Source: Escherichia coli (lineage in GTDB: Bacteria; Pseudomonadota; Gammaproteobacteria; Enterobacterales; Enterobacteriaceae). From it: DNA of 35,115 bases. The first letter of the stretch is position 1; the number at the start of each line of letters is the position of its first letter. Position numbers and translations under genes: made by a program. The notes beneath the pieces were generated by a model, which was given only the letters and a program-made list of their open reading frames with translations, had not been told where the DNA came from and did not search any database. The stretch lies in assembly GCF_003334765.1 (NCBI RefSeq), contig NZ_QOWT01000038.1. The stretch is one strand, 5' to 3'. Shown here piece after piece: positions 16,377 to 17,592 of the stretch.

Positions 16377-17276
16377 ATGCTCTCTCGACATATCAATTAT
16401 TTTCTTGCCGTGGCTGAACATGGCAGCTTCACCCGTGCCGCCAGTGCGTTGCACGTCTCCCAACCTGCGCTTTCCCAGCAGATTCGCCAGTTAGAGGAGA
16501 GTTTAGGCGTGCCGCTGTTTGACCGTAGCGGGCGAACGATTCGTCTCACTGATGCAGGAGAAGTCTGGCGACAGTACGCCAGCCGGGCGTTACAGGAACT
16601 GGGGGCGGGTAAACGGGCGATTCATGATGTTGCCGATCTGACGCGAGGATCGCTGCGTATCGCCGTCACCCCCACCTTTACGAGCTACTTTATCGGCCCC
16701 TTAATGGCGGATTTCTATGCGCGCTATCCCAGCATCACGCTCCAGCTACAGGAAATGTCGCAGGAGAAAATCGAGGATATGCTTTGCCGCGACGAGTTGG
16801 ACGTTGGGATTGCCTTCGCGCCTGTGCATTCGCCGGAGCTGGAGGCAATTCCTTTACTGACAGAAAGTTTAGCGTTAGTCGTGGCGCAACATCATCCGCT
16901 GGCCGTCCATGAACAGGTGGCGTTGAGTCGCTTGCATGATGAAAAACTGGTCCTGCTCAGCGCGGAATTTGCCACCAGAGAGCAAATTGACCACTACTGC
17001 GAGAAAGCGGGGCTACATCCACAGGTGGTCATTGAGGCGAACTCAATTAGCGCGGTTCTGGAGCTGATTCGCCGCACTTCCCTTTCCACATTGTTACCAG
17101 CAGCGATTGCCACACAACATGACGGGCTTAAAGCTATTTCTCTTGCCCCGCCACTACTGGAGAGAACGGCGGTTTTGTTGCGGCGGAAAAATAGCTGGCA
17201 GACAGCCGCCGCGAAGGCATTTTTGCACATGGCGTTGGATAAATGCGCGGTTGTTGGCGGAAATGAATCACGGTAG
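16377..17276 (+). CDS. cynR: LysR-family activator of the cyn operon
   Basis: ORF 16293..17276; canonical 299-aa product starts at [22 protein letters not shown] (LysR HTH); divergent from cynT. Confidence 0.92.
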
Positions 17277-17592
17277 CCGCTGACACAGGTCTGCGGCTGG
17301 AATTGCCTGATGCGCTACGCTTATCAGGCCTACGAGTTCAGTGCTCTACGTAGGCCGGATAAGGCGTTCACGCCGCATCCGGCATAAACTACAGCTGGCA
17401 GACAGCCGCTGCGAAGGCATTTTTGCACATGGCGTTGGAGGAATGCGCGGTTGTTGGCGGGAATGAATCACGGTAGCCGCTGACACAGATCAGCGGCTGG
17501 AATTGCCTGATGCGCTACGCTTATCAGGCCTACGAGTTCAGTGCTCTACGTAGGCCGGATAAGGCGTTCACGCCGCATCCGGCATAAACTAA
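17193..17592. repeat. Tandem direct duplication (2 copies of about 200 bp, roughly 97 percent identical) spanning the cynR 3-prime end and a REP pair
   Basis: 17193..17390 and 17393..17590 align base-for-base with 5 mismatches; each copy ends in GCCTGATGCGCTACGCTTATCAGGCCTAC ... GTAGGCCGGATAAGGCGTTCACGCCGCATCCGGCA. Confidence 0.9.

Follow-up and report, generated by a model that had tools for sequence, protein, structure and literature searches.

The convergent genes cynR and codA are separated, in the Escherichia coli DNA analysed here, by a spacer of 336 bp in which a 200-bp unit that begins inside the cynR coding sequence is repeated head to tail. By the window we mean the whole stretch of DNA that was analysed, 35,115 nucleotides long. 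The features of the locus are as follows.

16377 to 17276, plus strand: cynR, intact, encoding the LysR-type regulator of the cyn operon (K-12 and PGAP annotation mapped to the window, ORF listing).
17193 to 17392, plus strand: unit copy 1, made up of the cynR tail, a hairpin, a z2 inverted REP, a 16-nt linker and a y REP, then ATAAACTAC.
17275 to 17298, no strand given: hairpin of copy 1, overlapping the cynR stop codon, with a 6+3 bp stem and a T-T mismatch (inverted repeat, minimum-free-energy fold).
17305 to 17333, minus strand: z2-type REP of copy 1, an inverted REP on the plus strand (exact match to GTAGGCCTGATAAGCG).
17350 to 17383, plus strand: y-type REP of copy 1, GTAG and an imperfect palindrome (exact match to GTAGGCCGGATAAGGCG, fold).
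17393 to 17592, plus strand: unit copy 2, unlike copy 1 at 7 positions, including a last base A for C.
17393 to 17476, plus strand: cynR 3' relic, 28 codons plus stop (translation, PGAP annotation).
17475 to 17498, no strand given: hairpin of copy 2, a perfect 9-bp stem, AGCCGCTGA/TCAGCGGCT (inverted repeat, fold).
17505 to 17533, minus strand: z2-type REP of copy 2 (core match).
17550 to 17583, plus strand: y-type REP of copy 2 (core match).
17613 to 18896, minus strand: codA, encoding cytosine/isoguanine deaminase, convergent with cynR (K-12 annotation, ORF listing).

A repeat search of the window returned a 199-nt direct repeat, 17193-17391 against 17393-17591, with 97% identity and 200-nt spacing, which Tandem Repeats Finder described as period 200, 2.0 copies, 96% matches, 0 indels and a score of 755. 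Base-by-base comparison of these first 199 nt gave six mismatches between copy 1 and copy 2 (17210 C/T, 17240-41 TA/GG, 17261 A/G, 17289 G/A and 17292 T/A), and the final base of the unit is unlike too (17392 C, 17592 A), so that the copies differ at 7 of 200 positions. Beyond both outer ends of the repeat the same comparison found similarity at chance level, and a repeat of such length and identity is not plausible as a product of chance. The initial annotation had described a direct repeat here with five differences; the repeat itself holds, as a head-to-tail arrangement of exactly 200 bp, and the count of differences has to be raised to seven. It had also placed the last 84 bp of cynR in copy 1 and a cynR tail in frame with its own stop in copy 2; the cynR stop codon indeed lies at 17274-17276, and translation of copy 2 agrees. 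Its stop-to-stop gap of about 337 bp came close to the measured 336 bp, which is the same as in K-12 MG1655. From the end of copy 2 to the codA stop codon there are 20 nt.

The two REP palindromes that had been noticed in each copy are a z2 inverted REP and a y REP, recognized by exact core matches. GTAG stands 5' of each y- or z2-type imperfect palindrome, with y cores at 17350 and 17550 on the plus strand and z2 cores at 17318-17333 and 17518-17533 on the minus strand. The z2 REP (minus) and the y REP (plus) lie head to head across the 16-nt linker and form a BIME in the BIME-2 arrangement, where the REP types y and z2 and BIME-2 are used as defined in PMC3333891. REPs are dispersed well beyond this spacer: the whole window holds 15 y-like and 10 z2-like matches against 0-0.03 expected, and queries that contain REPs hit, as a median, 21-38 sites in each E. 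coli genome. A 25-codon ORF runs through the REP pair twice (17310-17387 and 17510-17587, plus strand), and in strain GF31 PGAP calls a frameshifted partial 'hypothetical protein' over the BIME (L014:662-741, minus strand); both are most likely spurious REP-derived calls.

The duplication is part of the normal K-12-type E. coli chromosome. Compared with the reverse complement of MG1655, the region 16000-18200 is 100% identical, which bears out the earlier guess that the arrangement is native to K-12, and only 1 base differs over the 5.5 kb compared, making the window a very close relative of MG1655. That sole difference is at 19781, inside codB, where the window has G and K-12 has T (coordinate 355286).

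Copy 2 repeats the end of cynR in a form that would not make a protein. The relic differs from the cynR tail at 4 positions in 84 nt. Its frame has an in-frame stop at 17360-17362, ten codons upstream, and translation of the copy 2 region found no usable start codon for it; the in-frame upstream stop and the lack of a usable start make the relic non-coding. We considered copy 2 as a small gene and rejected this for the same two reasons, at most a 15-17 codon internal ORF being left. In several genomes, strain 720632 among them, PGAP labels the relic 'hypothetical protein, incomplete, missing N-terminus', and RefSeq K-12 has no annotation over it. With homology to its parent gene, and without a start codon and the N-terminal part, it has the properties of a gene-fragment pseudogene, and annotation should treat the 84-nt cynR tail of copy 2 as a relic, without calling a gene there.

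The number of units between cynR and codA varies among E. coli strains. We surveyed 5,426 complete E. coli genomes with a 1-kb spacer query and read representative alleles directly; the collection is rich in K-12-derived laboratory strains, and the counts are not natural population frequencies. Genomes were taken as carriers of the junction between two units when a junction-spanning query was covered over at least 80% of its length, and the count is specific because that query is too poor in REP sequence to seed matches by itself. The alleles, by length of the gap between the genes, are these.

39 bp: no REP, a perfect 10-bp hairpin; L007, L009; 1,708 genomes.
132 bp: one BIME, truncated hairpin; O157:H7, A35; 762 genomes.
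136 or 146 bp: hairpin and one BIME; L003, L004, L011-L014; a few hundred genomes, by subtraction (rough).
336 bp: two units; K-12, 720632, D6, CREC-2; 1,561 genomes with the junction.
536 bp: three units; AF51, PRO_A-1420; counted within the 1,561.
Cyn operon absent: one BIME joins lacA to codA; L010; about 20%, by subtraction (rough).

Comparing the length of the cynR-codA spacer across E. coli had been proposed as a check on the repeat, and it shows single-copy alleles to exist, that is, a polymorphism and not a fixed feature. One-copy alleles occur on the K-12 flank (L011-L014, L017, L018), and three-copy alleles give the 536-bp gap (L008, L019), with three or more units in a few percent of junction carriers (a rough figure, from places per genome). 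A single junction, CCGGCATAAACTAC|AGCTGGCAGAC, is shared by K-12, 720632, AF51, D6 and CREC-2, and 1,285 of the 1,561 junction carriers have at least 99% identity to K-12 copy 2. The locus thus has what defines a copy-number-variable tandem duplication: a single shared junction, alleles in which the copy number is lower or higher, and copies that have recombined. It is very unlikely that the two-copy state of MG1655 is an assembly error, because 1,561 complete genomes agree with it. Scanning 100,044 species-representative genomes for exact matches to the junction gave no hit, an absence that applies to those representatives. The sequence next to codA also varies: its last sense and stop codons (17613-17618) read CGT TGA in K-12, CGG TAA in alleles that lack REPs or the cyn operon, and CGG TGA where the gap is 132 or 146 bp, and the BIME-to-codA stretch of 20-30 nt carries a 10-nt indel between haplotypes.

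The alleles define the ends of the unit exactly. The left breakpoint is AAAAAT|AGCTGG and the right breakpoint AAACTAC|GCTCGC; in single-copy alleles the left side reads ...GGAAAAAT|AGCTGGCAG... and the right side ...GGCATAAACTAC|GCTCGC.... In the two-copy alleles of D6 and CREC-2, AAACTAC ends both copies and copy 2 is then followed by GCTCGC. Together with the right flank of single-copy alleles, this fixes the unit as exactly AGCTGG...AAACTAC, 200 bp, and since AAACTAC|GCTCGC was the right flank ancestrally, K-12 acquired its A at 17592 afterwards. Over 12 nt to each side, the two breakpoints resemble one another no more than expected by chance, without microhomology, and because the flanking bases are unlike at both breakpoints the position of the join is unambiguous. 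A microhomology join via AGCT (TAGCT and TAAGCT in K-12) was rejected, as D6, CREC-2 and the single-copy alleles show AAACTAC|GCTCGC to be the original sequence on the right. Zero microhomology at a founding join is unusual for slippage-type duplications. The junction is found on at least two codA-side haplotypes, GTCGTTCAAC in K-12 and GCCGATTACC in D6 and CREC-2; the same junction in all carriers examined, on these different haplotypes, indicates a single origin with recombination after it.

These breakpoints bear on what could have made the first duplication. The initial annotation had proposed a REP-mediated event, that is, an unequal homologous crossover between REPs. REPs are abundant dispersed repeats, with 15 and 10 matches in the window, and elsewhere at the locus such exchange is plausible, as a REP pair also lies in the lacA-cynX spacer and cyn-less strains have a hybrid lacA-codA BIME. 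A REP-REP crossover would, however, be expected to leave both ends of the unit inside REPs; instead the left end is unique cynR coding sequence, the breakpoint flanks (12 nt on each side) are alike only at chance level, and each unit encloses a whole BIME without being bounded by one. The left breakpoint in unique coding sequence excludes REP-REP crossover as the founding event, and the proposal in that form, with breakpoints that share no homology, has almost no chance of being correct.

The codA-cynR duplication is already on record in the REP/BIME literature. Ton-Hoang et al. 2012 (Nucleic Acids Res 40:3596, PMC3333891) mention codA-cynR as a place where part of the adjacent gene was captured in a BIME unit; the locus and the feature are the same as ours, with no sequence difference. 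To this published mention we add the exact breakpoints, the survey of alleles over 5,426 genomes and the finding that the breakpoints lie off C|T cleavage sites. The last point matters for the mechanism proposed by Ton-Hoang et al. 2012, in which the REP-associated tyrosine transposase TnpAREP/RAYT would cut single-stranded DNA twice, once close to the BIME and once farther off in cynR, and the ends would be rejoined with 108 nt of flank carried along. According to that paper, TnpAREP cleaves at C|T, either at the inverted-REP sites TGCC|TGAT and GGCC|TAC or at a C|T in the linker, and it can cut at C|T at a distance from the BIME; its naming of codA-cynR as a BIME unit with a sequestered gene fragment speaks for the proposal as well. 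At the locus itself, the right breakpoint follows the y REP by 9 nt and a C|TAC motif by 3 nt, a C|T (AGC|TGG) comes 3 nt after the left breakpoint, and the ordinary 93-nt BIME arrays in the window show BIME amplification to be active in this genome. Nevertheless, the unambiguous breakpoints are T|A and C|G, which are not C|T on either strand, and the unit boundaries do not coincide with C|T sites, the nearest C|T being 3 nt off on each side. A unit bounded by C|T would be 194 nt long with the junction ...AAAC|TGG..., and the actual junction is ...AAACTACAGCTGG... with a 200-nt period. The simple C|T-to-C|T model was rejected on this mismatch. PMC3333891 itself states that activity of the enzyme has not been shown in vivo and that an in vivo system is lacking. 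We therefore regard transposase action as an unlikely origin of the first join. Its stronger form, in which the duplication would be a natural footprint of the REP-associated transposase, with flanking coding sequence mobilised together with the BIME and the 3-nt C|T offsets left by end processing, we consider unlikelier still. If it were true, this polymorphic locus, whose closely related alleles hold from 0 to 3 units in different strains, would offer a convenient system in which to examine the enzyme in vivo.

A different origin for the first join would be homology-facilitated illegitimate recombination with DNA of another strain, in which the right end pairs in codA and the left end of the donor cynR (AGCTGG) is ligated just past the resident BIME. 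The copies would then differ from the start by the allelic divergence between donor and recipient, and a copy difference of 3.5-4% is about that between E. coli alleles. Consistent with this, the alternatives TA/GG and A/G, those in the hairpin and the C/A of the last base are also found segregating among other strains' single-copy cynR alleles, copy 2 carrying the widespread EEC state and copy 1 the DKC state that it has in common with strain A35. The same pattern would nonetheless be left if allelic recombination or gene conversion, for which the locus gives clear evidence, had replaced sequence in an initially identical duplication, and illegitimate events of the proposed kind usually show a few bases of microhomology, of which there are none. 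We give this origin a small but real chance.

Recombination after the first join has left traces in several alleles. The three-copy allele of AF51 has the copy order 1,2,2, and its internal junctions keep C. The single-copy allele of an O6:H16 strain (L013) is chimeric: as far as 17261 it has the states of copy 1, and from 17289 onward those of copy 2, precisely the mosaic expected of an unequal crossover between the two copies. A predicted collapsed allele, with the crossover placed in the 99-nt identical REP part of the unit, is matched at 100% by at least 24 genomes, among them ETEC H10407 and the laboratory strain OV2. We did not retain OV2 as proof of a very recent collapse, as its flanks come near to identity with the window without reaching it, and ETEC H10407 comes about as close. 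The single-copy allele of GF31 (L014) is a reverse mosaic, like copy 2 in its left part and like copy 1 in its right; it goes beyond simple collapse and would call for gene conversion or for allelic diversity of older date.

The states that distinguish the copies (GATAAA/GAGGAA, GGA/GGG and the hairpin bases) occur as ordinary cynR alleles in single-copy strains. Because they segregate there, the 3.5-4% divergence between the copies is better read as imported allelic variation than as mutations accumulated since a duplication that could be dated by them. The duplication had been called recent from its low divergence. This is doubtful, given a junction in 1,561 of 5,426 genomes, at least two flank haplotypes and copies 3.5-4% apart, and it is further weakened by the segregation of most of the copy-differing states in single-copy strains.

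We conclude with high confidence that the cynR-codA spacer carries a copy-number-variable tandem duplication that arose by insertion of a BIME, one non-homologous join and later homologous recombination. Structure, breakpoints, polymorphism, recombinant alleles and K-12 identity were observed directly; the order of events and the agent of the first join we infer. The ancestral spacer would have been a 39-bp gap with one hairpin, beside which a z2/y REP pair (BIME) was then inserted. A non-homologous join would next have linked a position 9 nt past the y REP (...AAACTAC) to one 84 bp before the cynR stop (AGCTGG...), giving the 200-bp head-to-tail repeat. Unequal crossover between the copies would then have produced the three-copy and the collapsed one-copy alleles, and allelic exchange with other strains most of the 7 copy differences. 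Such a history resembles that of short tandem segmental duplications subject to unequal RecA-dependent crossover, which likewise have a novel junction, a head-to-tail arrangement, and three-copy and chimeric one-copy alleles. The cynR-codA duplication differs from these in that its founding join is without microhomology and that it has persisted onto at least two flank haplotypes.

The unit should also be distinguished from ordinary BIME-2 arrays. Both have a z2 inverted REP and a y REP head to head with a short linker (16 nt here) and a unit number that varies among strains. Ordinary BIME-2 arrays, however, contain only REPs and linkers in units of about 90-100 nt (the period is 93 nt in the window), while the cynR-codA unit is 200 nt long and over half of it is unique sequence, namely 84 nt of cynR coding sequence and the 24-nt hairpin; it falls outside the REP-and-linker description. 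Tandem arrays of the ordinary BIME-2 type are present at 25095-25380 and 34858-35115, with a 93-nt period and about three copies each; the second runs past the end of the window, and further REPs lie at 3-19 and 104-120.

BIMEs also flank the cyn operon on its other side. In K-12 the lacA-cynX spacer (13820-13900) contains, immediately behind lacA, a z2 inverted REP together with a truncated y REP. A strain that lacks cynXSTR (L010:1463-1640) has a single BIME between lacA and codA, in which the linker is like the lacA-side copy and the y REP and right flank are like the codA side. This hybrid of lacA-side and codA-side BIMEs marks the presence or absence of the cyn operon as a polymorphism bounded by BIMEs, and loss of the operon may have been a BIME-BIME deletion.

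With regard to function, the one effect on physiology that is likely is that codBA and cynR transcripts meet, at their 3' ends, two hairpin-plus-BIME modules and not one, and a modest effect on the ends of these convergent transcripts is possible. REPs protect upstream mRNA from 3' exonucleases. RNA of the spacer forms the three hairpins, and its folds are far more stable than those of shuffled sequences (z = -3.7 and -5.5 for the two strands). The hairpin at the stop codon reads AGCCACTGAC...GTCAGTGGCT in REP-free alleles (L007, L009, about 667-700) and AGCCGCTGA...TCAGCGGCT in K-12 copy 2, and its 3' half is lost from the 132-bp allele (O157:H7, A35). The compensatory changes between alleles suggest that a structure, in RNA or DNA, is conserved where the two genes converge. 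A scan of the spacer for a sigma-70-like promoter and for a canonical intrinsic terminator found neither. Two weak terminator-like matches (0.7 expected), each a 5-bp stem followed by ATTTTT, lie at the left breakpoint inside cynR (17193-17210, minus strand); the T-run is missing at the equivalent place of copy 2, and the matches are probably a coincidence. The Rfam family naRNA4 (RF02564), a nucleoid-associated RNA derived from REPs, was also considered and rejected, as the best scores of 39.4 and 38.3 bits are below the gathering threshold of 59.5 and only the REP hairpin is shared.

The extra unit could in principle have been kept by selection, with the second module aiding termination or 3'-end stability of codBA and cynR or cutting transcript collision. 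The compensatory changes that conserve the hairpin (AGCCACTGAC/GTCAGTGGCT against AGCCGCTGA/TCAGCGGCT) and the better-than-shuffled folding on both strands would fit such a role. Against it, the spacer has no canonical intrinsic terminator, and alleles with 0, 1, 2 and 3 units, all at appreciable frequency, and their ready collapse look neutral. Selection for the second unit is improbable on this evidence, and the coexistence of 0-, 1-, 2- and 3-unit alleles, each at appreciable frequency, is most compatible with neutrality.

For work on E. coli genomes, expansion and collapse of the array could confuse PCR or short-read mapping across cynR-codA, and E. coli lineages can be told apart simply by the length of the spacer (39, 132, 136, 146, 336 or 536 bp) as a structural marker. 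The cynR-codA locus could, in addition, serve as a natural substrate on which to test the REP-associated transposase in vivo.
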